64,000 bases of DNA from Candidatus Flemingiibacterium merdigallinarum (GTDB taxonomy: Bacteria; Bacillota; Clostridia; Oscillospirales; CAG-272), in assembly GCA_904386005.1 (NCBI GenBank), contig CAJFKR010000003.1, forward strand, positions 7,587 through 71,586, written 5' to 3'. Each line of letters starts with the position of its first letter. Positions within the stretch are counted from its first letter, which is position 1. The notes below the pieces were generated by a model. It searched no databases and was not told the origin of the DNA. It saw only the letters and a list, made by a program, of their open reading frames with translations. The position numbers and the translations under genes were made by a program. This document shows, one piece after another, positions 9,905 through 44,300 of the stretch.

Positions 9905-10030
9905 AATAATCTCCCTGTTTTTTATTTTATATAAGCTATTATAGCAAAAGTGCGGGCGGTTGTAAATAGACAAATCAACCATATCAGCACAAATCGACCA
10001 TGTTCGATAATCAAGGAAAGGAATATTCAC

Positions 10031-11596: not shown

Positions 11597-12784
11597 ATGC
11601 CAGAAAAATTTGTATATGCGGACAACGCGGCGACGACACGCGTGTCACAATCGGTGCTTGACGCGATGCTGCCATATTTTGGTGAAGAATATGGCAATCC
11701 GTCCAGCCTGCACTCGAAGGGCAGAGAAGCGAGTGCCGCGCTTGGCGACGCGCGGGCAAGAATCGCAAAGCTGCTTGGAGCTAAGGAAAGTGAGATTTAC
11801 TTCACCGCGAGCGGCTCGGAGGCTGACAATTGGGCTGCCAAGGGCGCGGCATATGCCAATCGCGACCGCGGCAGGCATATAGTATCGACAAAAATCGAAC
11901 ATCACGCGGTACTCAATTCACTGAAAGCGCTCGAGCGCGAGGGCTTCGAGGTGACGCTTGTCGACGTAGATCAAGGGGGCAGAGTCTCGCCCGAAGCGGT
12001 AGCGAACGCGGTCAGGGAGGACACTGTGCTTGTTTCAGTCATGACCGCAAATAACGAGGTCGGCACAATCGAACCGATAGCCGAGATCAGCGCGGCGGTC
12101 AAGCAAAAGAATCGAAAGACCTTGATTTTCACCGACGCGGTGCAGGCGGCAGGAACGCTCAGGCTCGACGTCCGTGAGCTCGGAGTCGATATGCTCAGCC
12201 TTTCGGGGCACAAGCTGCACGCGCCGAAAGGCGTCGGCGCGCTTTATATCCGGAACGGAATACGCGTATCGAACCTGATTGACGGCGGCGGACAGGAGCG
12301 CTCGCGGCGGGGCGGAACCGAAAATCTTCCTTATATAATAGGGCTGGCAAAAGCCCTTGAGGACGCGGTCGCCGGAATCGATGAAAACGCGCGGGTCTCG
12401 GCAATGCGCGACCGGCTGATCGACGGGATTCTCGATAAGATCCCGTATACCCGACTGAATGGAGCGCGCGAGCAAAGATTACCCGGGAATGTAAATATAT
12501 CATTTGATTATATTGAGGGCGAAAGTCTGCTGCTCTGGCTCGACATGAACGGAATCTGTGCGTCGACCGGCTCGGCCTGCTCGTCGGCATCGCTCGAAGC
12601 GTCGCACGTATTGCTTGCGCTTGGCGTGCCGGTCGAATCGGCGCACGGCTCGCTGCGACTGTCGCTCGGTCGGGACAATACAGACGACGACGTCGACTAC
12701 ATTCTGCGAGTCCTGCCCGGGATCGTCGAACGGCTGCGCGCCATGAGCCCGCTTTATGAAAAGGTTAACGGCTCGAAGATCTGA
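11597..12784 (+). CDS. nifS: Cysteine desulfurase (NifS/IscS class V aminotransferase)
   Basis: 395 aa. YADNAATT, GNPSSLHS, SGHKLHAPKGVGALY (PLP lysine context) and the active-site loop STGSACSS are present. Confidence 0.9.
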   Translation: MPEKFVYADNAATTRVSQSVLDAMLPYFGEEYGNPSSLHSKGREASAALGDARARIAKLLGAKESEIYFTASGSEADNWAAKGAAYANRDRGRHIVSTKIEHHAVLNSLKALEREGFEVTLVDVDQGGRVSPEAVANAVREDTVLVSVMTANNEVGTIEPIAEISAAVKQKNRKTLIFTDAVQAAGTLRLDVRELGVDMLSLSGHKLHAPKGVGALYIRNGIRVSNLIDGGGQERSRRGGTENLPYIIGLAKALEDAVAGIDENARVSAMRDRLIDGILDKIPYTRLNGAREQRLPGNVNISFDYIEGESLLLWLDMNGICASTGSACSSASLEASHVLLALGVPVESAHGSLRLSLGRDNTDDDVDYILRVLPGIVERLRAMSPLYEKVNGSKI

Positions 12785-12863
12785 CGATGGAGATTTTCGA
12801 AAAAACAGAGAGCATAGAGGTACCGCTCTCAATACATCAACAAATATACGGGAGGTAATATAA

Positions 12864-13295
12864 ATGTACAGCGAAAAGGTAATGGAGCACTTCACGAATC
12901 CGAGAAATGTCGGCGAGCTTTCGGAGGCAAACGCTGTGGGAGAGGTCGGCAACGCGGCCTGTGGAGATATCATGAAGATGTATCTTAAAATAAATGACGA
13001 CAATATCATTGAGGACGTCAGGTTCAAGACATTCGGCTGCGGAGCCGCGATCGCGACGTCGTCGATGGCGACCGAGATGATCAAAGGGAAGTCGGTCGAC
13101 GAGGCGCTCAAGCTGACAAACAAAGCGGTCGTTGAGGCGCTCGACGGACTTCCGCCGCAGAAGCTGCACTGCTCGGTGCTCGCCGAGGAGGCGGTAAAGG
13201 CAGCAATTGCCGATTATTACGACAAGAAGGGGATAGCGCACGACCTGTATCCGCACTGTGACGGCTGTTGTGACACCTATGCAAAAGAGCATTAA
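12864..13295 (+). CDS. nifU: Fe-S cluster scaffold protein NifU/IscU type
   Basis: 143 aa. MYSEKVMEHFTNPRNVG, NAACGD, FKTFGCGAAIA and LHCSVLA carry the three conserved Cys. Confidence 0.9.
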   Translation: MYSEKVMEHFTNPRNVGELSEANAVGEVGNAACGDIMKMYLKINDDNIIEDVRFKTFGCGAAIATSSMATEMIKGKSVDEALKLTNKAVVEALDGLPPQKLHCSVLAEEAVKAAIADYYDKKGIAHDLYPHCDGCCDTYAKEH

Positions 13296-13400
13296 TAAAC
13301 GAAAAATCACAAATATTCAATACGAGATACGCTTAGAATCAAATCAGGACATAAATTTATGGATTTATCCGGAATTCAAACAAAATTATAAACAAGTGAA

Positions 13401-14164: not shown

Positions 14165-17164
14165 ATGAAAAAAACAAAATTGACAAGGTTAATTGCTGTT
14201 TTTTTATCATTGATGATGCTCTACTCCGTGATTGGAGCCGGCGACTTTACGGTTTCGGCTGCTGAGGAAGGCGACGATGAAACGGCCTCATCGACGGTCA
14301 GCTATGATATAGCTGACGTCCAGGACCTGCTCAACGCCGAATCCTACGCCGATTACGCGGAGCGCAACGCGGATGTCCCGCGCGGCACATCAACGATAAC
14401 AATCAACGCGGTTGACTACAACACGGAGCTGACCGACGCCGATGTTGAGGTCGTGAATAATTATAACGGCACCACCGGCAGCGCGCTGCTCACGCCGAAC
14501 ACCGGTTCAGTGGTGTGGGACGTCGAGATTCCGAAGACCGGAAAATACGCGATCGACATCGAGTATTCATTCCCGACCGACGGAAAATCGACCGCGATCG
14601 AGCGCAAGCTGCGCATCGACGGCGAGTATCCGTTCAAGGGTATAAGATACCTCTCGTTTACCAAGGTATGGCAGGATCAGTTCGAAACTGACGAGAACGG
14701 AAACGACGCGTACAAAACCGATATCAACGGCAATGACATCAAGGCTCAAAAGGAAATCGTACCTACGTGGAGAACCTACACTTTAAGCGACTCCACCGGT
14801 TACGACATAGACCCGTATGAGGTAGTCTTTGAGGCCGGCTCGCACACGCTGGCACTCGAAGCCGACCGCGAGGTGCTGGTCATAAAGTCGATTACGATTT
14901 ACCCGTATGAAGACCTTCCTACATGGGAAGACGTCAAGGCTGAATATTCAACTAACGGCTATCAGCCGGCGACCGGAGCCGAACCGATAATTCTCCAGGC
15001 GGAGTTCCCGGACTACACTTCGGACAGCACGATCTATGCCGCAAACGACAGAACCTCGGCTCTCACTCAGCCGCAGAGCTCTTCGAAGTCGCTTCTGAAC
15101 ACGCTCGGAAGTACGAAGTGGCAGTCGGTCGGACAGTGGATTGAGTATTCGTTCACCTGCGAAAAGAGCGGTCTTTACGACATAGTCACACGCTACAAGC
15201 AGTCGGATGTCTCGGGTATGTATACCTCGCGCCGTATTTACATAAACGGCGAGATTCCGTTCGAGGAAGCCAATTATCTTCAGTTCAATTACTCGGATAC
15301 CTGGCAGACCGAAGTCCTAAACAACGGACAGGAGCAGTTCCAATTTTACTTTGAAGAGGGACAGACCTATACAATCAAGCTTGAAGTCGTACTCGGCGGC
15401 ATGAGCGAGATCATCGGTCGGGTTCAGGAATGTCTTACATCAATCAACAACGATTATCTGAAGATACTCCAGATCACCGGTGCTGACCCCGACGTTTACC
15501 GCGACTATAACTTCAGAAACCTGATCCCCGATACTATCAAGGATCTGTATGCACAGTACCTTGAGCTGACCGCGGTTTCGAATCTCATCACCGAGATCAA
15601 CGGAATCAAGGGAAGCAACACCGCAACGCTTGACAACGTCGCGCGCGTGCTTCAGACGATGGCTACCGATGAAGACGAGGTCGCAAGAAATATGGCGACC
15701 TTGAAGAGCTACATCGGTACTCTCGGTACCTGGCTCAACACCGCGACAAACCAGCCGGTGCTCCTCGACTACATCTGCATCCAGCCGTCCGGCGAAGACC
15801 TCCCCAAGGCTGAAGCAAACTTCTTCCAGGCAGCCGGATTCGAAATTACCTCGTTCGTAATGTCTTTCTTCACCGACTACAACAACCTCGGCGCGACCAT
15901 CGAGCTTGATGAAGATGACGTAATCGAGGTTTGGATCGCGACCGGACGCGACCAGGCACAGGTCGTCCGTTCAATGATCGATAACGGCTTCACTTCCCAA
16001 ACGAACATCGGCGTTTCGCTGAAGCTCGTAACCGCGGGTACGCTTCTACCGGCAACCCTTTCGGGCACCGGACCTGACGTAAACCTCGGAAGCGCGCAGG
16101 GCGACCCGGTACAGTACGCGATTCGTAACGCGGTGCTCCCGCTGAACGATTTCGACACCTTCGACGAAGTGACATCGCGCTTCTCCGAAGCCGCGATGGT
16201 TCCGGTAACGCTGTACGGCACGACTTACGGTCTGCCGGAAACCCAGACCTTTAATATGCTCTTCTACCGCAAGGATATCTTCGCGGAGCTTGGAATTGAC
16301 ATTCCTAAGACCTGGGACGACTTGATGTCGATAGTTCCGTATCTTCAGTACAACCACATGGAAGTCGGTCTGCCGAAGGAGCTTGCCGGTCTCCAGATGT
16401 TCCTCTACCAGATGGGCGGCGAGCTTTATGCCGACGAAGGTATGAGAATCAACCTTGACTCAAACGTCGCGCTTGAAGCGTTCGACTATGAGTGCTCCTT
16501 CTTTACACAGTATTCGTTCCCGGTAACCTATGACTTCCCGAACCGTTTCAGAACCGGTGAAATGCCGCTCGGTTTCGCTGACTATATCGGCACCTACAAC
16601 CAGCTGTCGATATTCGCGACTGAAATCCGCGACCTCTGGGAATTCGTACCGATCATCGGTATGGAGGACGAAAACGGCAACATCAACAACGTTTCGGTAT
16701 CTACAATTACCTCGCTTGTTATGATGAACGGCTGCAAGAACCCCGAGAACGCATGGAAGTTCATGGACTGGTACACCTCCGCTGAAACCCAGTCGACTTA
16801 CGCAAACGAGATGGTTGCTATAGTCGGACAGGGCGCGATGTACGCAACCGCTAATAAGGAAGCGCTCGAATCGCTGCCGTGGTCGACGACCGACCTTGAG
16901 AATATTCAGGCGCAGTACAACAACCTCGCCGCTATTCCTGAAATGCCGGGCGGCTACATCATCACTCGTTACGTACAGTTCGCGTTCCTTGACGCTTATA
17001 ACAACAACGCTGACCCTGTAGAAGCACTGCTCGGCTACGTTGATGATATCAACAAGGAAATCACGAGAAAGCGTAAAGAATTCGACCTTGATACCCTCGA
17101 GCTGGGCGAAACTCTGGCTGACAGAGAAGCGGCTCAGAACAATGAGGAGACCACAGCCGAATAA
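14165..17164 (+). CDS. Giant secreted solute-binding protein (999 aa): signal peptide, two CBM-like beta-sandwich modules, helical linker, C-terminal family-1 SBP fold
   Basis: AGGAGGAAAGG lies 5 nt before the ATG at 14165 (the tracked start at 14033 lacks an RBS). MKKTKLTRLIAVFLSLMMLYSVIGAGDFTVSA-AE is a signal peptide. There is an internal duplication (GKYAIDIEYSF...RKLRIDGEYPFKGIRYLSFTKVW versus GLYDIVTRYKQ...RRIYINGEIPFEEANYLQFNYSDTW). The C-terminal ~420 aa is SBP-like (IEVWIATGRDQ..., TWDDLMSIVPYLQ). Confidence 0.75.
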   Translation: MKKTKLTRLIAVFLSLMMLYSVIGAGDFTVSAAEEGDDETASSTVSYDIADVQDLLNAESYADYAERNADVPRGTSTITINAVDYNTELTDADVEVVNNYNGTTGSALLTPNTGSVVWDVEIPKTGKYAIDIEYSFPTDGKSTAIERKLRIDGEYPFKGIRYLSFTKVWQDQFETDENGNDAYKTDINGNDIKAQKEIVPTWRTYTLSDSTGYDIDPYEVVFEAGSHTLALEADREVLVIKSITIYPYEDLPTWEDVKAEYSTNGYQPATGAEPIILQAEFPDYTSDSTIYAANDRTSALTQPQSSSKSLLNTLGSTKWQSVGQWIEYSFTCEKSGLYDIVTRYKQSDVSGMYTSRRIYINGEIPFEEANYLQFNYSDTWQTEVLNNGQEQFQFYFEEGQTYTIKLEVVLGGMSEIIGRVQECLTSINNDYLKILQITGADPDVYRDYNFRNLIPDTIKDLYAQYLELTAVSNLITEINGIKGSNTATLDNVARVLQTMATDEDEVARNMATLKSYIGTLGTWLNTATNQPVLLDYICIQPSGEDLPKAEANFFQAAGFEITSFVMSFFTDYNNLGATIELDEDDVIEVWIATGRDQAQVVRSMIDNGFTSQTNIGVSLKLVTAGTLLPATLSGTGPDVNLGSAQGDPVQYAIRNAVLPLNDFDTFDEVTSRFSEAAMVPVTLYGTTYGLPETQTFNMLFYRKDIFAELGIDIPKTWDDLMSIVPYLQYNHMEVGLPKELAGLQMFLYQMGGELYADEGMRINLDSNVALEAFDYECSFFTQYSFPVTYDFPNRFRTGEMPLGFADYIGTYNQLSIFATEIRDLWEFVPIIGMEDENGNINNVSVSTITSLVMMNGCKNPENAWKFMDWYTSAETQSTYANEMVAIVGQGAMYATANKEALESLPWSTTDLENIQAQYNNLAAIPEMPGGYIITRYVQFAFLDAYNNNADPVEALLGYVDDINKEITRKRKEFDLDTLELGETLADREAAQNNEETTAE

Positions 17165-17279: not shown

Positions 17280-18239
17280 ATGTCACAGAACGCAGCGGCG
17301 GTAAACAATTCGCCAAAGCCGACGGCTCGCAAGGACATGACAAAGGCGCAGTGGACGCTGAAGGAAATACGTCGCAACAAAACGGCGTATATAATGATAG
17401 CTCCCTTCATGATTCTGTTCACTATCTTTACTGTCTTCCCTGTTGCGCTGTCGATCATTCTGAGCTTCACGCAGTTCAACTTGCTTGAAGTGCCGGTGCC
17501 TGTCTTCATGGATAACTACATCAGATTGTTCCTTGACGACGATATATTCCTTACCGCCTGCCAGAATACACTCGTATTCGCGGCAGTCACAGGACCGGCT
17601 TCCTACTTCTTGTCCCTGCTCATCGCATGGTTCATAAACGAGCTTACCCCGAAGATCCGTGCGCTTGTAACCCTCGTCTTCTACTCTCCGTCGATTTCGG
17701 GTTCGGTTTACCTCATTTGGGGTATCATCTTCTCGGACGACGCGTACGGTTACGCTAACGCGTGGCTGACCGAGTTCGGTATAATTACCGAGCCTATACT
17801 TTGGTTCCACGATGCAAAATACGTCATGGGTCTTTGTATAGTAGTCGCGCTTTGGACCTCGCTCGGTACCTCGTTCCTTTCGTTCATCGCAGGTCTTCAG
17901 ACCATCGACAAATCGCTTTATGAAGCCGGCGCGGTCGACGGTGTAAGAAACAGATGGCAGGAGCTCTGGTACATTACCCTTCCGACTATGAAGCCGCAGC
18001 TTATGTTCGGTGCGGTCATGTCGATAACCGGTTCGTTCGGATTCGGCGCTATAGTTACCGCGCTCGCCGGTATGCCGTCTGTCGATTATGCGGCGCATAC
18101 GATTATGCACCACCTCGAGGACTACGGCGGACAGCGTTTCGAGGTCGGTTACTCGTCGACTATCGCGGTTGTGCTGTTCGTAATAATGGTCGGTGCTAAC
18201 CTGATAGTCAAAAAATTATTATCGAAGGTAGGACAATAA
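17280..18239 (+). CDS. ABC transporter permease (MalF/LplB-like)
   Basis: 319 aa and multi-TM. EAA loop YEAGAVDGVRNRWQELWYITLPTMKP. AAGGAGAG RBS. Confidence 0.88.
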   Translation: MSQNAAAVNNSPKPTARKDMTKAQWTLKEIRRNKTAYIMIAPFMILFTIFTVFPVALSIILSFTQFNLLEVPVPVFMDNYIRLFLDDDIFLTACQNTLVFAAVTGPASYFLSLLIAWFINELTPKIRALVTLVFYSPSISGSVYLIWGIIFSDDAYGYANAWLTEFGIITEPILWFHDAKYVMGLCIVVALWTSLGTSFLSFIAGLQTIDKSLYEAGAVDGVRNRWQELWYITLPTMKPQLMFGAVMSITGSFGFGAIVTALAGMPSVDYAAHTIMHHLEDYGGQRFEVGYSSTIAVVLFVIMVGANLIVKKLLSKVGQ

Positions 18240-18240
18240 G

Positions 18241-19113
18241 ATGGCAAGATTAAGAACCAGAAAACATAAAGTTGTCCTCAACCGCTCAGTTGGCGGTGAT
18301 ATCGGTATCAACGTTTTGCTCATCCTCATGGGCGCGTTCATGTTCCTGCCGATGCTCTACGTTATAATGCAGTCCTTGAAGCCGCTTGACGAACTCTGGA
18401 TGTTCCCGCCGCGCTTTTACGTTGTAAGCCCGACGCTCAAAAACTTCTCCGACCTGTTCAAGCTGATGAGCACCTCGTGGGTTCCGTTCTCGCGCTACAT
18501 ATTCAACACTGTGTTTATCTCGGTAGCCGGAACGCTCGGCAACCTGCTTCTGTCCTCGCTTGCCGCTTACGCGCTCGCGAAGATAAACTTCCCCGGACGC
18601 GGCTGGATATTCCAGGTCATCGTCCTCTCGCTGATGTTCAACTCAACGGTCACCAGCATTGCAAACTTCTTAACGATGTCGACCCTTCACTGGATTGACA
18701 CCTATCTCGCAATCATCGTTCCGGCATGGTGTACTTCTCTCGGACTTTATCTGATGAAGAACTTCATGGATACCGCGGTTTCTGACGCGGTGCTCGAGTC
18801 CTCACGACTTGACGGCGCGACCGAATTCTACACATTCTTAAAGATAGCGATGCCGATGGTTAAGCCGGCTTGGCTGACACTTATTATCTACTCGTTCCAG
18901 ACTCTGTGGAACGCCGGCGGTTCTATCTACATCTATTCCGAACAGTTAAAGACCTTCAACTACGCAATCAGCCAGATCGTTGCCGGCGGTATCGCCCGTG
19001 CGGGTGCGAGTGCCGCTTCGACAGTTATCATGATGGCGGTGCCGATCACCGTCTTCGTCGTCACTCAGAGTAATATCATTGAGACGATGGGCTCATCGGG
19101 TATGAAGGATTAA
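18241..19113 (+). CDS. ABC transporter permease (MalG/LplC-like)
   Basis: 290 aa. EAA loop LESSRLDGATEFYTFLKIAMPMVKP. It starts 1 nt after the upstream stop. Confidence 0.88.
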   Translation: MARLRTRKHKVVLNRSVGGDIGINVLLILMGAFMFLPMLYVIMQSLKPLDELWMFPPRFYVVSPTLKNFSDLFKLMSTSWVPFSRYIFNTVFISVAGTLGNLLLSSLAAYALAKINFPGRGWIFQVIVLSLMFNSTVTSIANFLTMSTLHWIDTYLAIIVPAWCTSLGLYLMKNFMDTAVSDAVLESSRLDGATEFYTFLKIAMPMVKPAWLTLIIYSFQTLWNAGGSIYIYSEQLKTFNYAISQIVAGGIARAGASAASTVIMMAVPITVFVVTQSNIIETMGSSGMKD

Positions 19114-19124
19114 GGAGGGTAAAT

Positions 19125-21251
19125 ATGAAAAAAATATCAAGAATACTTACCCTCGCGGCACTGGTGATTCTTGTGCTCGGCTGCCTTCCGATCAACGCTA
19201 TCACTCCGTATTCAACTTATACCTACTCAATCGGCGGCTTTTCGCTTATGTCGCCTGACGCATATACACCGGACAGACAGATCGATTCAAACTACATGGG
19301 CGTAACTCCGGCAATCGACGACCCGCGCGATTTGTTCGTAGATCAGTATAAGAATATTTACATCGCGGACGCCGCGAACAACCGTATCGTTGTACTTGAC
19401 AGATATTACAAGCTCAAGTTCTACATAAATACGTTTGTCAACGGACAGGGTGTTCCGGACTCGCTGACCAACCCTTCGGGCGTATATGTCACCGAGGATA
19501 AGATTTATGTAGCCGACACCGACAACAATCGTATTGTAATGTTCGAGCTTGACGGCACCTTCTATAAGGTTATCGAGGAGCCTGACTCGGATGTTTTCCC
19601 GTCCGGTTCTATTTACAAGCCGGTCGCAATCGCAGTCGATAACTATGGTCGTATCTATGTTATTTCGTCGACCACCTACATGGGTGTCATCGCGATAAAC
19701 GAAAACGGAGACTTCCAGGGCTTCATCGGCGCGCAGAAGGTTACGATCGACGCGCTCTCGATAATCTGGAGACGTTTCCAGACTGAAGAGCAGAGAGCTT
19801 TGTCGCAGCAGTATGTATCGACTGAGTTCAACAACATCACCATCGACGACAAAGGCTTCATCTATGTAACCACCTCGTCTATCGACGAGAATCAGCAGCA
19901 GGCGGCTATAAACTCGAAGGACGGAACTTATGCTCCTGTCAAGAAGCTGAACACCGCGGGTTCGGACATCATGAAGCGTAACGGCTTCTTTGGTCCGGGC
20001 GGTGAAGTTAACATCACGAATATCTCGACCGCTGATATCACCGGTCCTTCGAAGATCATCGACGTCGCTATCGGACCGGAGGAGACCTGGTCGATAATCG
20101 ACGAAAAGCGCAGCAAGATTTACACCTATGACTCCGACGGAAATCTTCTGTTCATCTTTGGCGATACTGGACAGCAGCTCGGTAACATTCAGTCTATCGA
20201 AGCTATTGCCTACCTCGATAATGACATTCTCATTCTTGACAAAACTTCCGATAACATCACTGTTTACAGACGTACTGAGTACGGCGATCTGCTGCTTGAA
20301 GCTATCAGAAATACAAATGAACGTAACTACGACACTACGATTGACTACTGGATGGAAATACTTAAGCGCAACAACAACTTTGACTCGGCTTACATCGGTA
20401 TAGGCAAGAGCCTTTACAGAAGCGCTGACTACGAAGAATCGCTTACCTATTACAAATCCGCGTATGACACGGAGAATTACTCCGAATCGTTTAAGGAAAT
20501 CAGAAAAGCTTGGATTTCGAAGTATATCGTTCTGATTCCGATAATCGTAATTGCGATCGTTGTCCTTATCGTATTGTTTAACAAATACGCAGCAAAGCTC
20601 AACAAGAAGACGCAGCTCAAAAAGGGCAGAAAGACCTTCTGGGAAGAGCTTATCTACGCGAACCATGTCATATTCCACCCGTTCGACGGTTTCTGGGATT
20701 TGAAGCATGAATATCGCGGTTCGGTCAGAGCCTCGTTTGTATGGATCGTAATCGCTATTCTGACATTCTATTATCAGAGCGTCGGTACCGGTTATATCTT
20801 CAATCCTCAGGAAGGCGGTTCGACAATATTGGTTCAGCTGACCGCGGTGCTCGTACCTGTACTGCTTTGGACCGTATCCAACTGGTGCTTGACCACTCTG
20901 TTCGACGGCGAAGGCAGCTTCAAGGATATATTTGTCGCAACCTCTTACGCTCTGGTGCCGATTCCGATACTTATTATCCCGTCGGTCATCATATCAAACT
21001 TCTCGCTCGCATCTGAAGCTACCATTATCAATCTGCTTGTCTCGCTCGCATTCATCTGGTGCGGTCTCCTGATCTTCTTCGGCACAATGGTAACTCATGA
21101 CTACACTTTCTCGAAGAATGTCATTACATCCCTCGGCACAATCGTCGGAATGGCTATTATCATGTTTATTGGTATCCTGTTCTCGACGCTGCTTGCTAAG
21201 ATTGTAAGCTTTATTTCGAGTATTGTTATCGAAATCACGTATCGTATGTAA
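19125..21251 (+). CDS. Membrane protein: signal peptide, six-bladed NHL-repeat propeller, TPR-like segment, C-terminal Yip1-type multi-TM domain
   Basis: NHL-like blades are YKNIYIADAANNRIVVLD, EDKIYVADTDNNRIVMFE, YGRIYVISS, KGFIYVTTS, SKIYTYDSDGNLLFIFG and NDILILDKTSDNITVYR. The helical repeats include YYKSAYDTENY. Five hydrophobic helices follow from KYIVLIPIIVIAIVVLIVLF onward (FHPFDGFWDLKHE...). Confidence 0.65.
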   Translation: MKKISRILTLAALVILVLGCLPINAITPYSTYTYSIGGFSLMSPDAYTPDRQIDSNYMGVTPAIDDPRDLFVDQYKNIYIADAANNRIVVLDRYYKLKFYINTFVNGQGVPDSLTNPSGVYVTEDKIYVADTDNNRIVMFELDGTFYKVIEEPDSDVFPSGSIYKPVAIAVDNYGRIYVISSTTYMGVIAINENGDFQGFIGAQKVTIDALSIIWRRFQTEEQRALSQQYVSTEFNNITIDDKGFIYVTTSSIDENQQQAAINSKDGTYAPVKKLNTAGSDIMKRNGFFGPGGEVNITNISTADITGPSKIIDVAIGPEETWSIIDEKRSKIYTYDSDGNLLFIFGDTGQQLGNIQSIEAIAYLDNDILILDKTSDNITVYRRTEYGDLLLEAIRNTNERNYDTTIDYWMEILKRNNNFDSAYIGIGKSLYRSADYEESLTYYKSAYDTENYSESFKEIRKAWISKYIVLIPIIVIAIVVLIVLFNKYAAKLNKKTQLKKGRKTFWEELIYANHVIFHPFDGFWDLKHEYRGSVRASFVWIVIAILTFYYQSVGTGYIFNPQEGGSTILVQLTAVLVPVLLWTVSNWCLTTLFDGEGSFKDIFVATSYALVPIPILIIPSVIISNFSLASEATIINLLVSLAFIWCGLLIFFGTMVTHDYTFSKNVITSLGTIVGMAIIMFIGILFSTLLAKIVSFISSIVIEITYRM

Positions 21252-21274
21252 TAACAGGATAGGAGTTATAGTAA

Positions 21275-24200
21275 ATGAAAAAATTCAGATTATTATCGGC
21301 ATTCCTGACTGTTGTTATGGTTTGGGGTGTGCTTGCAAGTCTACCGGTCTTTGCCGCAGAGGCTGAGACCACCGAAGACGGTGTTCTGATTCCTGGATGG
21401 GACGACGAAGAAGGAGTTCCTACCATCGATTATGTAACACAGCTCTTCAACACTCCCGAGGATAAGCTGGCTACCATGACGAAGTATCTCGATAAGGGAA
21501 ACTTTGAATTGTATGTAGAGCCGATTTCTGGTGAAATTGCGTATGTCAACAAAGTGACCGGACAGATTCTTTTCTCGAATCCATACGACGTCTCCCAGAC
21601 AAGCGCATCGGAATCAATAAAACAACAGCTTCTCTCGCAGATTGAGATCAAGTATACCGACAACGACTCTCAGCTCGAGCTTCACAGCTTTGTTGAAGCC
21701 TGCCAGAGAGGTCAGATCGTCGTAAAGAAGATTAAAAACGGCGTTCGTGTCGAATATACTATGGGTCGTGAAGAGACCCGTAAGCTCGTTCCGAAACAGA
21801 TTGAAAAAACTCGTTTCGAAACCTTGATTCTTGCGAATATCCCCGAAGGTCAGGCGCTCAACAAGATGAACGCGTTTTATCAGCTCAAGGACCCGTTTGA
21901 TCCGAACCTGACAGAGCGTGCAAAGCGTGAGCTGCAGGCGACCTTCCCCATAACAAACGAAATGGCGATCTACATCTTCGACCCGTATGCGTCCGACCGT
22001 GAGCTTAACGAAATCGAAGGCTATATCAAGCAGTACTGCCCTGAATATACGTATGAAACCCTCGAAGAGGACCATACGATGACAGAGTATGAAGGAAAGG
22101 ATGAAGCACCGGTTCTGTTCAGACTTTCGCTCGAATACACGCTCGATGAAGATGGCTCGCTCGACGTCCGTCTCCCCGCGAACGGTATCCGTTTCGACGA
22201 GAGCTCGTTCCAGCTCGACTCGATCACTCCCCTGCCGTGGTTTGGAGCCGGTTCGAGCAATTACAGCGGCTATACATTCATCCCCGACGGTTCGGGTACA
22301 CTCGTCCGTTTTGAGGACGTCGGAACCAAGCCGCTGACCCTGTCCGGTCAGATTTACGGACCTGACTACGCGTATCAGGAAATCACTGGCTTCCAGCACA
22401 AGGAAGTTATGAGGCTTCCGGTATTCGGTGTAGTTGAAACAAATGTAGCACTCCCGATAACAGAAACTGACGCCACCACCGGTGAGACCACGACGACCTA
22501 CGCCGAGATTGAAACGGCAGACGGTGAGATTTACGAGAAAAAGACCAACGGCTTCCTCGCGATTATTGAGGAAGGCGACGCGCTCGCAAGCATCACCACC
22601 GAGCACGGCGGTACAGTTCATTCCTACAACAGTGTCAACGCGTCCTTCTCACCTCGTCCTAAGGACTCGTATAACCTCGCTGAAGCAATTTCGGCCGGTC
22701 AGGACGCTACCTACACGGTCGTTTCCGAGCGTAAATACACCGGAAGCTATCGCATTAAGTACATAATGCTGACTGAGCCCGAGCTCGCGGAAGCTACTGG
22801 TTTTTCCGATTATTATGAAGCATCCTATGTCGGAATGGCTACCGCATACAGAGAATACCTTGAGAATGAAGGAATTCTCACCGACCTTGAAAATGTAAGC
22901 GATTCGATCCCGCTTTACATTGAGTCGTTTGGCTGCCTTGAGGATATAGAGCGCATTCTTTCAATCCCTGTTGAAGTTTTGAAGCCGTTGACCACATTCG
23001 AAGATTTGAAGTCGATGTATACACAGCTCTCTGAAGCCGGTATTACAAACATCAACTTCAAGCTCACCGGATTTGCAAACGGTGGTATGAACGATACCTC
23101 AGCGTATAATGTTAAGTTCGAAAAGGTAGTCGGCGGTAACGACGGCTTCACTGAATTCGTTTCTTATGCACAGTCGAACAACTTTGGCGTATATCCTGAT
23201 TTCGACTTTGCGAACATCGGTATGTTCGAAATGTTCGACGGCGTTTCGATGAGAAAGCACCTCATCAAGACGATGGATAACCGCTACACAAGTAAACGTT
23301 ATTACGACTCGACGCTCCAGTCCTACGAGAGAGGTTACTCGCTCGCGGTATCACCTTCGGTTTATGACTATTTCTACGAGCACTTCAAAGAGGACTACTC
23401 TGATCTCAGCCCGATGGGTCTGTCCGTATCAACTCTCGGTACCGACCTGAACTCCGACTTCGATAAGAAGGAGCCGTACAACCGCGAGGACAGCAAGGAA
23501 TTCACGACCGACCTGCTAGCAGATATTGAAACTGACTACCAAAACGTCATGATCGATGGTGGTAACCTTTACTCGCTGCCGTATGCGGATCATATTATCA
23601 ATGTTTCGCTTGACTCCAGCCGCTTCTCTAATGCAAGTGAAGCTGTGCCGTTCATGGGTATGGTGCTTCATGGTAGTATGAACTTCGCCGGCACTGCTAT
23701 CAATATGGCAGGCGACACCCAGTATGAACTGCTTAAGGCCATCGAAAACGGCGCGTCACTTTACTTCACGCTTTCGATGCAGAACACTTCGCTGCTTAAG
23801 GAAGACATTGAATTCAACAAGTACTATTCAATATCGTTTGATATTTGGTATGAAGAACTTGTTTCGCTTTACAACACGCTCAATGACGCGATCGGTGATG
23901 TTCAGGACAAGAAGATCGTCGACCATGAATTCCTGATTGGCGAGCGCGTACCGTCCGCTGAAGAAATTGAAGCTGACCGTATCGCCGAGGAGGAAGCAAG
24001 ACTTGCTGAGGAAGAAGCTGAAGCACTTGCGGCTGAAAAGGCTGAAAAGAAGGAGCTTCTTGAACAGAGACTCGCTGAACTCGCAGGTGAAGAGTATGAG
24101 CCTGAGGAGCCAGAGGAGGAAGAAGAAGAGGAAGAAGTCGTCACCGAGGGTTACCAGTATACTAAGTATACCTCCGACGACGGCAGAATCGTCAAGGTCA

Positions 24201-24313
24201 CCTACGAAGGCGGAAAGTCTTTCATACTCAACTACAACAACTTTGAAATCACTGTCGTTGATGATGGTACTACCTACACAATCGGCGCACTTGATTTCGT
24301 TCAGGTTGATTAA
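21275..24313 (+). CDS. Secreted 1012-aa protein of unknown function (possibly DUF5696-like), with acidic coiled-coil/poly-Glu tract and a small C-terminal domain
   Basis: Signal peptide MKKFRLLSAFLTVVMVWGVLASLPVFA-AE. I recognise no catalytic motif. The acidic tract is EEIEADRIAEEEARLAEEEAEALAAEKAEKKELLEQRLAELAGEEYEPEEPEEEEEEEE (23960-24137). The DUF label is from memory only. Confidence 0.5.
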   Translation: MKKFRLLSAFLTVVMVWGVLASLPVFAAEAETTEDGVLIPGWDDEEGVPTIDYVTQLFNTPEDKLATMTKYLDKGNFELYVEPISGEIAYVNKVTGQILFSNPYDVSQTSASESIKQQLLSQIEIKYTDNDSQLELHSFVEACQRGQIVVKKIKNGVRVEYTMGREETRKLVPKQIEKTRFETLILANIPEGQALNKMNAFYQLKDPFDPNLTERAKRELQATFPITNEMAIYIFDPYASDRELNEIEGYIKQYCPEYTYETLEEDHTMTEYEGKDEAPVLFRLSLEYTLDEDGSLDVRLPANGIRFDESSFQLDSITPLPWFGAGSSNYSGYTFIPDGSGTLVRFEDVGTKPLTLSGQIYGPDYAYQEITGFQHKEVMRLPVFGVVETNVALPITETDATTGETTTTYAEIETADGEIYEKKTNGFLAIIEEGDALASITTEHGGTVHSYNSVNASFSPRPKDSYNLAEAISAGQDATYTVVSERKYTGSYRIKYIMLTEPELAEATGFSDYYEASYVGMATAYREYLENEGILTDLENVSDSIPLYIESFGCLEDIERILSIPVEVLKPLTTFEDLKSMYTQLSEAGITNINFKLTGFANGGMNDTSAYNVKFEKVVGGNDGFTEFVSYAQSNNFGVYPDFDFANIGMFEMFDGVSMRKHLIKTMDNRYTSKRYYDSTLQSYERGYSLAVSPSVYDYFYEHFKEDYSDLSPMGLSVSTLGTDLNSDFDKKEPYNREDSKEFTTDLLADIETDYQNVMIDGGNLYSLPYADHIINVSLDSSRFSNASEAVPFMGMVLHGSMNFAGTAINMAGDTQYELLKAIENGASLYFTLSMQNTSLLKEDIEFNKYYSISFDIWYEELVSLYNTLNDAIGDVQDKKIVDHEFLIGERVPSAEEIEADRIAEEEARLAEEEAEALAAEKAEKKELLEQRLAELAGEEYEPEEPEEEEEEEEVVTEGYQYTKYTSDDGRIVKVTYEGGKSFILNYNNFEITVVDDGTTYTIGALDFVQVD

Positions 24314-24333: not shown

Positions 24334-25308
24334 ATGAACAGCGAATTAAAGCTCAATAGTGTCCCCGCTGCTAAAAAGCGCAAGCGTGGTGCCTCTCTTG
24401 ATAAGCGCAAGGCGCGTGCGGGATGGATGTTTGTCATGCCGTTCGTCCTCAGCTTTATCATCATCTACCTGCCGATCATCATTGACTCGATAAAGTACAG
24501 CTTTAACAAGATCAAGATCGGTCAGGGCGGCGGCTACACTCTCGAATTCGTCGGCTGGGAAAACTACCAGGAAGCGTTGTTTGTCGACCCTCAGTTCGTT
24601 CAGACTCTGACTTCCGGTATCCAGCAACTGATCTTTGACATCCCGGCAATAGTCATATTCTCGCTCTTTATGGCAGTGCTTCTGAACCAGAAAATGGTTG
24701 GACGCGCCGCGTTCCGTGCAATCTTCTTTATTCCGGTTATTATCTCGACCGGTATCATTGACAAGATTGACCAGGCAAACACCATGCTCGACTACATGGA
24801 GAACGTCGAAGAGGGTATCAACGACGGTTCCGGACAGAACACGACCAACGAAATCTTGTCCGCGGTCGATATCGAGCGTTTGTTTGACAACATGAAGGTT
24901 GGTACCGAGCTGGTTGACTACGTTGTAACGATGGTTAACAACGTCTACAACATCATCAACCGTTCAGGCGTACAGATGCTGATTTACCTCGCAGGTCTGC
25001 AGTCCATCTCGCCGTCGATTTACGAATCGTGCGATATAGACGGTGCGACCGCATGGGAAACCTTCTGGAAGATCACCTTCCCGATGATCAGCCCGATGAT
25101 TCTCGTAAACGCGATTTACACAGTCATCGACTCGTTTACATCACAGTCCAACCAGGTTATGACTTACATTTCGAATGTATATGACCAGGCTGGAGGAAAC
25201 GTGCTCAGCTCGGCAATGGCATGGATTTACTTCCTTATCGTTCTTCTCATAATCGGTTTGGTTGCCGCACTGCTCAGCGCGTACGTATTCTACCAGAAGC
25301 GCGATTAA
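24334..25308 (+). CDS. ABC transporter permease (MalF-like), second pair
   Basis: 324 aa. Basic N-terminus, then TM helices. EAA loop YESCDIDGATAWETFWKITFPMISP. Confidence 0.85.
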   Translation: MNSELKLNSVPAAKKRKRGASLDKRKARAGWMFVMPFVLSFIIIYLPIIIDSIKYSFNKIKIGQGGGYTLEFVGWENYQEALFVDPQFVQTLTSGIQQLIFDIPAIVIFSLFMAVLLNQKMVGRAAFRAIFFIPVIISTGIIDKIDQANTMLDYMENVEEGINDGSGQNTTNEILSAVDIERLFDNMKVGTELVDYVVTMVNNVYNIINRSGVQMLIYLAGLQSISPSIYESCDIDGATAWETFWKITFPMISPMILVNAIYTVIDSFTSQSNQVMTYISNVYDQAGGNVLSSAMAWIYFLIVLLIIGLVAALLSAYVFYQKRD

Positions 25309-25321
25309 TGGAGGGTAAAAA

Positions 25322-26380
25322 ATGAATTCTCAACAAGCACCTCAGGCTCCCCGCGTAATGAAGGAGAGCAAAAACAAAATCAGAGTTGAGTTTGAAAGAA
25401 CCCCTCTAAAAGAAAGATTAAAGGCGAAATTCTTAAACCTTAACTTTCTTACAAATGTCGTCTGGGTTATTTTCAGACTGGTTCTGCTTATCGGTATTTC
25501 GTATGTCATTCTATTCCCGTTCTTCGCGAAGATCTCCGGCTCATTTATGAGCCGTGAGGACTTCGTTGACGTAACGGTCAAGCTGATACCGAAATATCCT
25601 ACGCTTGACACTTACAGAGCTATCATCCAGGAAAATGATTATTTCGAAGCTCTTCTGAACACGACGATCCTGTCGGTTCTCTGCGGCATTATCCAGACAT
25701 TTATGTGCTGTGTAATCGGTTACGGTCTTGCGAAGTTTAAGTTCAAAGGAAGCAAGCTTATATTCTTCCTTGTTATCTTCACAATGGTTGTTCCGCATAG
25801 AACACTCCAGCTCTCGATGTTCATGAAGTTCAGATACTTCGACATTCTTGGTATATTCAATCTCCTCGGAGGCGGAGTATTCGAAGGATTAAAAGTTTTA
25901 CCTTTCACATCCCTGAACCTGAACAATACATATTGGCCTCTGGCACTTCTGTCGATTGGCGGACTTGCGTTTAAGAACGGTCTGTACATCTTCATGATGC
26001 GTCAGTTCTTCCGCGGTGTACCGGATGAGCTTGAAGAGTCGGCATACATCGACGGAAGCGGCACTTTCAGAACCTTCATTCAGATTATACTTCCGCTTTC
26101 CGTGCCGATGATGATCACTATCTTCCTGTTCGCGTTCTCGTGGCAGTGGACAGATAACTTCTACACTACGATATTCTTCACAAAAGCCTCGATGGTTCTG
26201 ATGCCGGATATCATCGCGATACCAAAGACATTGGACACCGCATATGCGGCGCAAAACCTGTATGAATCGGCGATACGTAATACCTGCGGTCTGCTGATAC
26301 TCGCTCCTCTGCTCATAATCTACATCTTCATGCAGAGATTCCTTATCGGCGGTATCGAGCGTTCTGGTATTGTCGGTTAA
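25322..26380 (+). CDS. ABC transporter permease (MalG-like), second pair
   Basis: 352 aa. EAA loop EESAYIDGSGTFRTFIQIILPLSVP. Confidence 0.85.
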   Translation: MNSQQAPQAPRVMKESKNKIRVEFERTPLKERLKAKFLNLNFLTNVVWVIFRLVLLIGISYVILFPFFAKISGSFMSREDFVDVTVKLIPKYPTLDTYRAIIQENDYFEALLNTTILSVLCGIIQTFMCCVIGYGLAKFKFKGSKLIFFLVIFTMVVPHRTLQLSMFMKFRYFDILGIFNLLGGGVFEGLKVLPFTSLNLNNTYWPLALLSIGGLAFKNGLYIFMMRQFFRGVPDELEESAYIDGSGTFRTFIQIILPLSVPMMITIFLFAFSWQWTDNFYTTIFFTKASMVLMPDIIAIPKTLDTAYAAQNLYESAIRNTCGLLILAPLLIIYIFMQRFLIGGIERSGIVG

Positions 26381-26542: not shown

Positions 26543-29500
26543 TCAGATTATCGTTCTGCCTTCGTAGACTTTGACCGCGCCGCCGGAAAGGAATACAGCT
26601 TCGTCCGTGTAACGAATCTTGAGGTCGCCGCCTTTGAGCTTTACAGTGATTTCCTCGTTCTTCGGACAGTAGCCGTTTTCAACCGCCGCGACAACCGCCG
26701 CACAAGCACCGCTGCCGCAGGCAAAGGTTTCGCCCGATCCGCGCTCCCAGACGCGCATCTTCAAGGTCGTTCGATTCAAAACCTTAATAAATTCGGTGTT
26801 GACGCGCTCGGGGAAAAGCGGGTCGTTTTCGAACTTCGGTCCGATGACTTCGAGATTCAAATTGTCGAGCGGAGCATCGAGATCTTCGCTGAATACGACG
26901 CAATGCGGATTGCCCATTGATACGCAGGTAATGCGGTAACGCCCGTCAGCGACCTGTACCGGTACGCCTATCGCGGTGTTTCCGGCGAGTTTGACCGGTA
27001 TAAGCGCCGGCTTTAATTCAGCCTTGCCCATATCGACTGTCGCCCAGCTTACTTCGCCGTTGACCTTTTCGACGGTTACCTTGCGGACGCCGCTCAAGGT
27101 TTCAATGGTAACGCTGTCGCCGTCGACAAGCTTGTTGTCAATCATATATTTCGCGATGCAGCGCGCCGCGTTGCCGCACATCTTGCCCTCGGTTCCGTCA
27201 AGGTTGAACATACGCATCTTGACGTCAGCCTTGTCTGACGGATACATCAGTACGACGCCGTCTCCGCCGATGCCGAAGTGGCGGTCGGCGAGCCGTATGG
27301 ACAGTCCCTCAGGATTGTCGATCTTCTGGTTGAAGCAGTTGAAGTAGATGTAGTCATTGCCGCAGGCTTCCATCTTGGTGAATTCAAGTGAAGCCTTTTC
27401 GGTGCGCATATCGTTGATGTCAACAAGCTCGGTGCAGGCCTGCGAATAACGGCTCTTCAGGCAATCGGCGACCGCGTTAGCGGTGTCGATCGAAGTCAGA
27501 CAGGGAATCGCGCGCTCGACTGCTTTACGGCGAATCTTTACGCTATCGCGCGACGGAATGCGTCCTTTTGCGGAGGTCGAAATCACATAATCGATCCAAC
27601 CGCTCTCGATGAGCTTGAGCGTGTTGTTTTCGCCCTCGTGAATTTTGTCGACGACCTTGACTTTCATGCCGTAATCTTCGATAACTTTCGCAGTACCACG
27701 GGTAGCGTATAGCTCAAAGCCGAGATCATAATAACGCTTCGCTACCTCGCCGACCTCCGACTTGTCACTGTCACGTACCGTGATGAATACGCCGCCATGC
27801 TTTTTAAGCGTGTAGCCGGCTGCGATCAGTCCTTTGTAGAGCGCTTCTTCACGAGTGCTTGCCAGACCGAGGACTTCGCCGGTCGATTTCATCTCGGGTC
27901 CGAGGTGATTGTCGACGTTCATCAGCTTTTCGAATGAGAATACCGGAACCTTGACTGCGACATACGGCGAGGTTTTATACAGACCGACACCATAACCCAT
28001 GTCTTTGAGCTTTTCACCGAGCATAGCGCGGGTTGCGAGGTCGACCATCGGCACGCCGGTGACCTTGCTGATATAGGGAATCGTGCGCGACGAACGCGGG
28101 TTGACTTCGATTACATAGAGCTGGTCATGGTAAATCAGATACTGAATATTGACAAGTCCCATGATTTTGAGCGAGACTGACAGCTTCTTCGTGCAGTCGA
28201 TGATGTCGTGGCGGAGCTTGTCGTTGATGTTCCACGCCGGATAGACGGCAATCGAGTCGCCCGAATGGATACCGGTGCGCTCGACGTGCTCCATGATTCC
28301 GGCGATGAGGATGTCCTCGCCGTCGCAGATTGCGTCGACTTCGAGCTCAATGCCCATCAGATATTTGTCGATAAGCACCGGATTCTCGATGTTGTGCGAC
28401 AGGATGATCGCCATGTATTCCTTGATGTCGTCGTCGGTGAACGCAATTATCATATTTTGTCCGCCGAGGACGTAGGACGGGCGCATAAGCACCGGATATC
28501 CGATCCGGTTCGCGATTTCAAGCGCTTCCTCGGTGGTCATGACCGTATAGCCAACCGGGCGCTTGATGTGGTGCTCCTCGAGCAGCTCGTCGAAGCGCTC
28601 GCGGTCCTCAGCGGCGTCGATCGAGTCGGCGCTCGTGCCGAGAATGTTTATATTCTGCTTTGATAAGAACTTGGTCAGCTTGATGGCAGTCTGACCGCCG
28701 AACGCGACGACGACGCCGACCGGATTTTCGGTCTCGATGATATTCATTACATCTTCGTTTGTCAGCGGCTCGAAGTAGAGTCGGTCAGCGGTGTCAAAGT
28801 CGGTCGAAACCGTCTCGGGGTTGTTGTTGACGATTACGACGTCATATCCGGCTTTCTTCAGCGACCAGACGCAGTGTACCGAAGCGTAGTCGAATTCGAT
28901 ACCCTGACCGATGCGGATAGGTCCGGCGCCAAATACGATCACCGTTTTCTTGTCGGGCGATTTGTGCTCGTTGATGAATTCGGTAGCTTCGTTCTCGTCG
29001 TCATATGTCGAATAGAAGTAAGGAGTCTCGGCGCTGAATTCGGCCGCGCAGGTGTCGACCATTTTGTATACGGCGCGGCGGTGCATACCCTCGGGCAGCG
29101 GTTTGCCGGACAGCTCTTCGATTACCTTGTCCGGGAAGCCGAGCTTTTTCGCGTCGAGGTAGAGCTCACTTGTCAGCGGTTCGGTCGCGAGTATCTGTTC
29201 GAATTCGGCGAGGTGGCGCAGCTTGCAGAGGAACCACTCGTCAATCATAGTGCATTCATGTATGTGCTCGACCGAAACTCCGCGGCGAAGCGCTTCATAT
29301 ACAATGAATATCCGCTCGTCGTCAATTTCATGCAGACGTGCTTCAATCTCGTCGTCGGTCATATCGCGGTATTTCGGCGCGGACATACTCGACATACCGA
29401 TTTCGACTCCGCGCACGGCTTTCATCATCGCCTGCTCGAAGCTCGTGCCGATAGCCATTACCTCGCCGGTCGCCTTCATCTGCGTGCCGAGCGTGCGCTT

Positions 29501-30604
29501 AGCATAGACAAATTTGTCAAACGGCCACTTCGGGAACTTGACGACGACATAGTCGATCGACGGCTCAAAGCAGGCGTAAGTCTTTTTTGTGACCGCGTTG
29601 ACAATTTCAGGAAGCGTGTATCCGATTGCGATTTTGGCAGCGACCTTGGCAATCGGATATCCGGTCGCCTTTGACGCGAGCGCGGACGAACGCGATACAC
29701 GCGGGTTGACCTCGATTACCGCGTATTCGAAGCTCTCGGGATGGAGCGCGAACTGCACGTTGCAGCCGCCTTCGATTTTCAGCTCGTTGATAATAGCGAG
29801 CGCGGCTGAACGCAGCATCTGATATTCCTTGTCGGACAATGTGACAGCCGGAGCGATGACGATGCTGTCGCCGGTGTGGACGCCGACCGGGTCTACATTC
29901 TCCATTGAGCAGATCGTGATTACGTTTCCGGCGCTGTCGCGCATTACTTCGAACTCGATCTCTTTCCAGCCGGATACGCACTTTTCGACCAGCACCTGAT
30001 TTATTGGCGACAGTCGAAGTCCGGTCTCGGCGATTTCGATAAACTCCTCCTCGGTGTTGGCAATGCCGCCGCCGGTGCCGCCGAGCGTGAACGCCGGACG
30101 GATGATAAGCGGATAGCCGTTCGAGTGAGCGAACGCGAGCGCGGCTTCGATGTCATTGACAACGGTAGACGGAATGACCGGCTGACCGATTTTCATCATC
30201 GTGTCCTTGAACGCCTGACGGTCCTCGGCTTTGTCTATAGTCTCGGGATTTGCGCCGAGCAGCTTGACTCCCATTTTGTCAAGGAAGCCTTCTTTGGCGA
30301 GCTGCATACTCAAGGTCAGACCGGTCTGACCTCCGAGCGTCGACAACAGGCTGTCGGGACGCTCTTTTTCGATGATGCGCTTGATGGTGGGGAGGGTCAG
30401 CGGCTCGATATATACCTCATCCGCCATTGCGTTATCGGTCATTATCGTCGCAGGGTTGGAGTTGACGAGTACGACCTCAAGACCGTCTTCCTTTAACGCG
30501 CGGCAGGCCTGTGTTCCCGCGTAGTCGAATTCGGCTGCCTGTCCGATTACAATAGGACCGGAACCGATAACCATGACCTTTTTTAACGCTTTATTGAGCG
30601 GCAT
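26543..30604 (-). CDS. carB: Carbamoyl-phosphate synthase large subunit fused in frame to diaminopimelate epimerase (1353 aa)
   Basis: Residues 1-~1065 are a complete CarB: two ATP-grasp halves ([19 protein letters not shown] / [18 protein letters not shown]) plus an MGS-like tail. Residues ~1070-1353 are a complete DapF ([46 protein letters not shown]). No stop codon separates them. Confidence 0.85.
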
Positions 30605-44256: not shown

Positions 44257-44300
44257 ATTATTAAGCTGATACTTTACTTTGCTGAGAGGAGATGGAACCA

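Follow-up and report, generated by a model that had tools for sequence, protein, structure and literature searches.

A DUF5696 protein with a predicted GH129-like fold, apparently lacking the catalytic nucleophile, is a proposed glycan-binding subunit of a conserved import cassette in gut Clostridia

A 64,000-nucleotide stretch of DNA from Candidatus Flemingiibacterium merdigallinarum (contig CAJFKR010000003.1, positions 7,587 to 71,586; hereafter the window, whose own numbering is used below) carries a conserved cassette of seven to eight genes for glycan import. The 1012-residue product of the open reading frame at 21275-24313 (+ strand, stop codon included), designated P0001, belongs to the Pfam family DUF5696 (PF18952) and is the putative extracytoplasmic subunit of this cassette. 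Its body is predicted to have the fold of the α-glycosidases of glycoside hydrolase (GH) families GH129 and GH101, with neither Asp nor Glu in the strand that bears the catalytic nucleophile of those enzymes. The explanation that we prefer, at a little short of an even chance, is that P0001 is a non-hydrolytic glycan-binding subunit of the importer, in effect a lectin-like pseudo-glycosidase. An earlier reading of the DNA, made from the letters and a list of open reading frames and referred to here as the original prediction, had described a secreted protein without recognisable catalytic motifs and had considered it the best candidate in the locus for a new enzymatic activity.

Family membership and the short-type paralog

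Residues 261-887 of P0001 matched positions 5-576 of the 612-position PF18952 profile with an E-value of 6.7e-146 and a score of 487.7 bits, the gathering cut-off being 25.6, and a genome-wide search with the DUF5696 profile recovered the P0001 gene as well. One search returned more than 2000 homologs at E ≤ 1e-5, with PF18952 present in all of those listed, and in an exhaustive search the number of 50%-identity clusters was 4497 at E ≤ 1e-3 and 1749 at E ≤ 1e-30. Among sampled genomes of the order to which the organism belongs, 67 of 151, representing 45 of 97 genera, had a homolog at E ≤ 1e-20, and some carried five to seven. The nearest named relatives were uncultured gut metagenome-assembled genomes, many of them labelled Candidatus Flemingiibacterium. 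Typical Clostridia-type DUF5696 genes, with products 49-52% identical to P0001, were also present in three assemblies labelled Methanocorpusculum sp. (L069), Selenomonadaceae bacterium (L099) and Bulleidia sp. (L110), where they are most likely the result of binning contamination.

An NCBIfam scan of P0001 gave no match, a direct phmmer search of P0001 against the PDB returned nothing relevant, and PF12905, the GH101 family, gave no Pfam match in P0001 even at E ≤ 1. A literature search for DUF5696 or PF18952, covering 8.4 million papers, found none.

A further DUF5696 gene of the same genome lies on a different contig (C4, about 98.1-99.9 kb; L002:733-2556), and its product, P0122, served as an internal control. 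P0122 has 607 residues as translated, its short-type relatives being about 560 residues long, and no signal peptide; the gene lies directly upstream of a GH109-type gene and outside the transporter cassette. P0122 belongs to PF18952 with an E-value of 2.6e-43 and just reaches the Pfam cut-off for GH101. Moreover, it matched NagBb, the GH129 α-N-acetylgalactosaminidase of Bifidobacterium bifidum, over about 480 residues (E 6e-22), with the Asp of its HYIDV motif on D435 and the Glu of its SSEGG motif on E478. Both of these residues (the Glu is E437 in short-type numbering) were invariant in 38 short-type sequences. When the profile of the long type, the branch to which P0001 belongs (A1, 53 rows of close orthologs), was aligned by hhalign with that of the short type (A2), the probability was 99.1. 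Together, the match of P0122 to NagBb and the A1/A2 profile alignment reliably connect P0001 with the enzymes of solved structure. The short type belongs to the same Pfam family as P0001 and keeps the catalytic Asp and Glu, but it has no signal, no extra N-domain segments, no arm and no cassette. Judged from these residues and the missing signal, P0122 is probably an active cytoplasmic GH129-like α-glycosidase.

Predicted fold and domain layout

An AlphaFold2 (AF2) model of P0001 built from 53 homologs had a mean predicted local distance difference test score (pLDDT) of 82 and a predicted template modelling score of 0.78. Its best Foldseek matches in the PDB were the GH129 enzymes DagB (5opq, E 6e-26; 8rzk) and NagBb (5wzn, E 7e-21), with template modelling (TM) scores on the target of 0.68-0.70, followed by GH101, GH31 and GH36 enzymes, the GH101 E-values being about 1e-13 to 1e-11. 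In the model, the body consists of three domains as in the GH129/GH101 α-glycosidases, an N-terminal β-sandwich, a (β/α)8 barrel and a C-terminal immunoglobulin (Ig)-like domain. The original prediction had proposed, as an inference, a TIM-barrel-type hydrolase body of about 870 residues between the signal and an acidic tract; the body was located as described, and its type was borne out by the DUF5696 match and by the Foldseek matches of the predicted structure to GH129 (TM about 0.69).

The N-terminal β-sandwich, at about residues 40-510 (21392-22804), is expanded, with a helical sub-domain at about residues 175-270 and a variable loop at about 392-424, as assigned from the secondary structure of the model and from hhalign, which paired residues 287-510 with the short-type N-domain. 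The segment 36-285, the first 250 mature residues and outside the Pfam match, was folded separately (pLDDT 91), and its only Foldseek match was the start of DagB (5opq), to the first 100 or so residues, with 97 columns, a root mean square deviation of 2.7, a probability of 0.99 and an E-value of 0.13. Since it matched the start of DagB only, the segment is taken as a part of a GH129-type N-domain that is enlarged and carries a helical insertion, and not as a separate module. An independent N-terminal carbohydrate-binding module (CBM) was considered and dropped, because Foldseek of this segment gave no significant match save the DagB start. The GH129/GH101-like (β/α)8 barrel follows at about residues 515-875 (22817-23899), delimited by Foldseek, by the hhalign alignment to the short type and by a weak NagBb profile match at the β2 motif.

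The C-terminal region had been described in the original prediction as an acidic coiled-coil/poly-Glu tract followed by a small β-rich domain. Both elements are present: nucleotides 23960-24137 indeed encode EEIEADRIAEEE...EEEEEEEE (residues 896-954), and the last 55 or so residues form β-strands (pLDDT about 79-93). As two successive modules they did not hold up, for in the model and in the alignment of hidden Markov models (HMMs) the helix sits inside one C-terminal β-sandwich. The first strands of the Ig-like domain, at residues 878-892 (23906-23950; model strands 881-886 and 889-891), include the conserved H884, which is common to the long type, the short type and NagBb. They are followed by a helical acidic insertion at residues 893-958 (23951-24148), made up of a helix at 895-936 and a disordered poly-Glu linker with pLDDT below 50 at 945-958. 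The remaining five strands (confident at 972-1011, pLDDT 79-93) lie within residues 959-1012 (24149-24310), which carry the motif ILNYN...YTI, and the short-type HMM aligned its own C-terminal strands to residues 964-995.

The same arrangement was seen in a survey of 150 sequences, comprising P0001 and 149 cluster representatives of up to 2545 residues. The ILNYN...YTI motif followed the H884 motif in 136 of the 150, and in 132 of these 136 there were 20-49 residues beyond it, whatever the length of the insertion. The span from H884 to ILNYN ranged from 18 to 1497 residues (median about 290; 23-46% Ala, Glu, Lys and Gln) and accounted for nearly all of the extra length of the longer relatives, a few of which carry extra length before it; the arm of P0001 is among the shorter ones. 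Because the motif stays near the C-terminus irrespective of the length of the span, the coiled coil and small β-domain make up, in the modelled structure, a single Ig-like domain like that of DagB, interrupted by a helical arm of variable length. Pfam scans of the relatives of 1358-2545 residues revealed no added domains and no fusions to other parts of the cassette, the only extra match being one weak, sub-threshold HL_N-beta.

Catalytic positions

Three sets of long-type sequences were compared, the 53 rows of A1, the 149 cluster representatives (41-55% identity) and a locus alignment of 24 rows, consisting of P0001 and 23 proteins from other genomes down to 24% identity. One of the two catalytic residues of NagBb, and the one conserved in DagB as Asp486, is Asp435 (PMC5698469). 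The corresponding β4 strand region of P0001, residues 712-723 (SPMGLSVSTLGT; 23408-23443), is the nucleophile site of GH129 and GH101, and it contains no Asp or Glu. With BLASTP, hhalign, MAFFT and HMM alignment, the nucleophile column fell at L716, in a four-residue gap, or at V718 or S719. V718 is the end of the AF2 strand 715-718, in agreement with the loop to the start of the NR(E/R)(D/E) helix, which has the same length in P0122 and NagBb. In the 149 representatives, the nucleophile columns were occupied by G/I/S/V/S/T, hydrophobic residues or Ser, with no acidic counterpart, and none of the 23 further long-type proteins had an Asp there. By these alignments, the whole long-type branch has lost the β4 Asp nucleophile.

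It is very improbable that P0001 is an ordinary retaining GH129/GH101-type α-glycosidase whose nucleophile was overlooked by the alignments. Such an enzyme would account for the strong fold match to GH129 and for the 33 residues between D728 and D761, as compared with 31-32 for the catalytic pairs of DagB and GH101 (PDB entry titles; PMC5698469). However, the four alignment methods agreed on the nucleophile column within three residues, the model strand and the equal loop length put V718, not D728, at the strand end, and D728 is Asn or Ser in 10 of the 149 representatives and in several distant relatives. Other hallmarks have been lost as well: the GHD loop after β2 and the β3 His of active enzymes are replaced in the long type. 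The statement in the original prediction that recognisable catalytic motifs were lacking agrees with the alignments, in which none of the motifs of the closest enzyme families was present.

The residue aligned with the acid/base Glu (NagBb E478, short-type E437) in the sequence and profile alignments is D761 (23555-23557). This column is variable, with 78 Asp, 28 Ser, 24 Glu and 14 Asn among the 149 representatives and further variation among distant long-type proteins. Similarly, E550, D642, D644, D728, D730, E738 and D739 are well conserved among orthologs, but some of these barrel carboxylates become amides or small or neutral residues in the wider clade. Among the acidic residues of the long type, universal conservation is confined to D338 and D364, both in loops of the N-domain, outside the barrel and without a short-type equivalent. 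D338, in the motif IPDGSG (22286-22288), is the sole acidic residue identical in every long-type relative examined (149 of 149 representatives, 24 of 24 locus rows with P0001 included, 53 of 53 A1 rows), and its column in the short type holds Arg or Leu. D364, in the motif YGxDYAY (22364-22366), is Asp in 148 of 149 representatives and 22 of 24 long-type rows; it stands at the start of a low-confidence loop (364-376, pLDDT below 50), and the segment is absent from the short type. As for whether the homologs lack conserved candidate catalytic residues, which the original prediction had named as decisive, the answer is thus divided: the barrel has no universal carboxylate, whereas D338 and D364 are universal but lie outside it.

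Three other proposals for catalytic residues were set aside. E824 is located at the end of the helix before β8 and is common to the short type, while R737, H799 and N810 are common to GH129 and the short type, as expected of ancestral structural or sugar-binding residues. A Ser-His-Asp esterase triad (S717 or S782, H799 and D338) was dropped, as no support for it was found.

In the glycan loci of Gram-positive bacteria, transporters usually have an extracellular enzyme beside them, and in GH97 the loss of the β4 Asp has led to the coexistence of inverting and retaining members. Several observations likewise weigh against a purely binding role and favour an active carbohydrate-processing enzyme with a rewired centre, 1) the acid/base column is acidic in 52 of the 53 close orthologs (33 Asp, 19 Glu, 1 Asn), 2) D724, D728 and D730 of the β4-α4 loop are conserved in the close ortholog group, and E738 and D739 are kept, 3) the conservation of D338 and D364 is at a level that would be typical of catalytic residues, 4) the fold of P0001 is that of exo-α-glycosidases, 5) two deep-branching long-type lipoproteins, L030 (257-2716) and L031 (7355-9673), have a Glu one residue off the nucleophile column, in GLNIE(R/K)LG, and also a Glu at the acid/base column, and from their sequences may be catalytically competent relatives in the same cassette, and 6) the superfamily offers a precedent for relocated catalytic residues in DagB, whose catalytic set differs from the NagBb acid/base and includes Asp202 from the N-domain of the second monomer (PMC5698469). 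P0001 could then be, for example, an inverting hydrolase that uses D761 or D728 together with D338/D364 and trims surface glycans for the importer, and the long type would be a new GH family. We give this alternative a substantial minority share of the probability. However, the barrel candidates are replaced among the 149 representatives (D761 by Ser or Asn in 42, D728 by Asn in 9, E550 by Gln or Asn in 6, D644 by Asn in 5), as catalytic residues seldom are, none of the barrel carboxylates is universal, and D338 and D364 are equally explicable as a structural or metal site or as sugar-binding residues. Moreover, the gene is fixed in its cassettes while the neighbouring carbohydrate-active enzymes (CAZymes) change.

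The glycan-import cassette

In the window, the cassette has the order giant binding protein, PermA1, PermA2, propeller/Yip1, DUF5696, PermB1, PermB2, all on the + strand. The first gene (14165-17164) encodes a giant, non-lipidated solute-binding protein (SBP) of about 1000 residues with N-terminal CBM-like modules (weak CBM_35) and a Pfam SBP_bac_1/SBP_bac_8 match at residues 646-925. Its true start is M45, giving a signal ...TVSA/AEE without Cys, and the gene is in the same position in all complete cassettes. The second and third genes (17280-19113) encode the first MalF/MalG-type permease pair, PermA1 and PermA2 (Pfam BPD_transp_1), in conserved order. The fourth (19125-21251), directly upstream of P0001, encodes an NHL-propeller/Yip1 membrane protein (Pfam NHL, SBBP and Yip1); in many distant cassettes the propeller and Yip1 are two separate genes, in that order. 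The sixth and seventh (24334-26380) encode the second permease pair, PermB1 and PermB2 (BPD_transp_1), which has no binding-protein gene of its own. There is no ATPase gene in the window operon.

The surroundings of the gene were examined at 38 homolog loci, three of which were fetched by protein identity (L005, L007 and L008), while 35 came from further genomes in the order, with identities as low as 24%. PermB genes were found directly after DUF5696 at all but three, the exceptions being L013, the truncated L016 and L039, the last of which had no recognisable PermB genes. The full cassette order was kept wherever the fetched DNA reached far enough, L005, L007 and L008 included, and at the short loci the DUF5696 gene was likewise flanked by the NHL/Yip1 gene on its upstream side and PermB1 on its downstream side. 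The one module swap was in L022 (300-8247), where DUF5696-PermB1-PermB2 comes first, followed by SBP-PermA1; this rearrangement of the modules as units suggests two functional modules.

Several paralogous cassettes occur per genome, beside different genes, such as those for GH95 and GH127-like proteins, a β-helix protein and ordinary binding proteins, and the neighbours of the L005 cassette are GH51-type and GH95 genes. Since the neighbouring CAZymes vary and the cassette is fixed, a substrate-adaptable core part fits better than one specific glycosidase. As it was put, the claim that a new enzymatic activity of the locus is to be expected above all in this gene is unsupported, in view of the lost nucleophile, the variable acid/base column and the fixed place of the gene among changing CAZymes.

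The reading frame of P0001 is open and is preceded by a ribosome-binding site, AGGAG (21261-21265, + strand), read directly from the sequence 9 nt ahead of the ATG, which itself lies 23 nt after the end of the preceding gene; together with the thousands of homologs, these features show that the frame called in the original prediction is a real gene. P0001 begins with MKKFRLLSAFLTVVMVWGVLASLPVFA/AE, in which residues 1-27 (...LPVFA/AE; 21275-21355) form either a Sec-type signal peptide or an N-terminal anchor and contain no lipobox, so that the signal expected at VFA-AE was confirmed. Close homologs have Sec signals of the same type, and five distant homologs have lipoboxes instead. By their sequences, the distant lipoprotein members are membrane-tethered like Gram-positive binding proteins, which fits a surface location. 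AxA-type signals followed by acidic residues were observed in both the giant binding protein (14165-17164; TVSA/AEE) and the DUF5696 protein (21275-21355; VFA/AEAE). Neither of these two proteins has a lipobox, a sortase motif or an S-layer homology (SLH) domain, leaving no obvious surface anchor in this monoderm cell.

The glycan-binding role that we prefer would have the following course. P0001 would no longer hydrolyse by the retaining mechanism of its family; instead, it would keep oligosaccharide chains on the surface of the membrane and deliver them to the importer. The recipient would most probably be permease pair B, which is encoded directly after P0001 and has no binding protein of its own, and the helical arm and the propeller/Yip1 protein may position P0001. 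The Pfam scan of P0001 gave no match to an SBP family, and its fold is GH129-like and not that of a two-lobed periplasmic-binding protein; any receptor role would therefore be by analogy and not by homology.

It is improbable that P0001 is instead a structural or assembly part without glycan binding, such as a wall-spanning scaffold that organises the giant binding protein, the propeller/Yip1 protein and the two translocators, with the old active site serving as a protein contact. Such a part would be consistent with a helical insertion that varies hugely in length (18 to about 1500 residues), with a strict gene order over deep divergence, which is typical of stoichiometric complexes, and with the missing anchors of P0001 and the giant binding protein. 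However, many polar residues of the barrel face are conserved within orthologs and different between paralogous cassettes, which suggests ligand specificity and not a constant protein partner.

Other genes of the window

The cassette of the window is flanked by nifS/nifU and carB. A nifS-type cysteine desulfurase gene (11597-13310 in the window, with nifU as well in L005 and the window) is directly upstream of the cassette in L005, L007 and L008, relatives that are only 52-54% identical and in which the genes downstream of the cassette differ. That nifS is kept upstream at this distance suggests that the cassette has been passed on vertically at a housekeeping locus and is not a mobile sugar island. 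On the other side, and convergent with the cassette, CarB, the large chain of carbamoyl-phosphate synthase, is fused in frame to a DapF-type diaminopimelate epimerase domain (26543-30604, - strand).

The window also contains four paralogous genes for proteins of about 410-570 residues, at 27-1256 (+), 1515-2966 (+), 8429-10150 (-) and 44292-45782 (+), with mutual E-values of 1e-44 to 1e-212 and clear lipoboxes in two. The four had no Pfam match even at E ≤ 1, none resembled the giant binding protein by phmmer, and the paralog at 1515-2966 had no match in the PDB. The paralog at 44292-45782 adjoins a gene for a GH78 rhamnosidase (45873-48218, - strand); the four are at most putative orphan binding proteins.

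Comparison with known systems

P0001 resembles NagBb (PDB 5WZN/5WZP) in its three-domain architecture and barrel, with a TM-score of 0.69 on the target, and the two have in common the β2 motif region, the VP....H motif, the NR.E helix start and the C-terminal strands. However, there is no direct significant sequence match between them (none by phmmer; family profile E 1.6 over 68 residues), and the homology is transitive via P0122. D435 of NagBb has no acidic counterpart in P0001, E478 corresponds to a variable long-type column, and W398 and the GYD loop are replaced. Moreover, P0001 is exported, is about 400 residues longer, and has N-domain insertions, a helical arm and a place in a transporter cassette.

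The best structural match, DagB or ZgGH129 (ZGAL_3152; PDB 5OPQ and 8RZK), is the exo-α-1,3-(3,6-anhydro)-D-galactosidase of Zobellia galactanivorans. In contrast to P0001, DagB keeps the β4 Asp (D486); it is a periplasmic enzyme, as shown by mutagenesis, from a polysaccharide utilization locus, and it is not part of a gene cassette for an ATP-binding cassette (ABC) transporter. The GH101 endo-α-N-acetylgalactosaminidases (EngBF, 2ZXQ; SpGH101, 5A55) have a similar barrel and flanking domains, but their TM-scores were lower than those of GH129, there was no direct sequence match, and P0001 is without their catalytic Asp (D764 of the pair D764/E796 in SpGH101).

The cassette resembles those CUT1-type carbohydrate ABC importers of Bacillota that rely on a shared orphan ATPase in its SBP_bac_1 binding protein, its MalF/MalG-type permeases and the lack of an ATPase gene, but it has fixed extras, namely the giant CBM-bearing binding protein, the two permease pairs, the propeller/Yip1 protein and DUF5696. 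Such a cassette is not described in a 2026 review of glycoside transporters, and a literature search for Yip1 with ABC transporter and Clostridia returned nothing relevant.

The nearest functional analogy for P0001, whose tie to the permeases is seen in conserved gene order, may be the heavy chain of the SLC3/SLC7 transporters. The SLC3 heavy chains (4F2hc/CD98hc and rBAT) have a GH13-like barrel and C-domain with no working catalytic centre and are obligatory partners of heteromeric amino-acid transporters; they are eukaryotic, single-pass proteins that are disulfide-linked to LAT-type permeases and unrelated to ABC importers. A more specific proposal, which we put forward as speculative and regard as rather unlikely in its full form, is that the long-type DUF5696 protein is the dedicated extracytoplasmic receptor or hand-over subunit of PermB1/B2. 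A nucleophile-less glycosidase fold would here do the job of an SBP, held by the propeller/Yip1 protein and extending an arm of adjustable length into or through the wall, as a bacterial counterpart of the SLC3/SLC7 heavy chains in a new class of dual ABC glycan importer that is widespread in gut Clostridia.

Implications

If the long-type proteins are rewired enzymes, they would constitute a new glycoside hydrolase family with a catalytic centre that is built in part by the N-domain. If they are non-hydrolytic partners of ABC importers, the automatic label of putative glycosidase would be wrong for thousands of genes of the gut microbiome, and glycan uptake by monoderm gut bacteria would involve a multi-part surface machine that is missing from current reviews of transporters.

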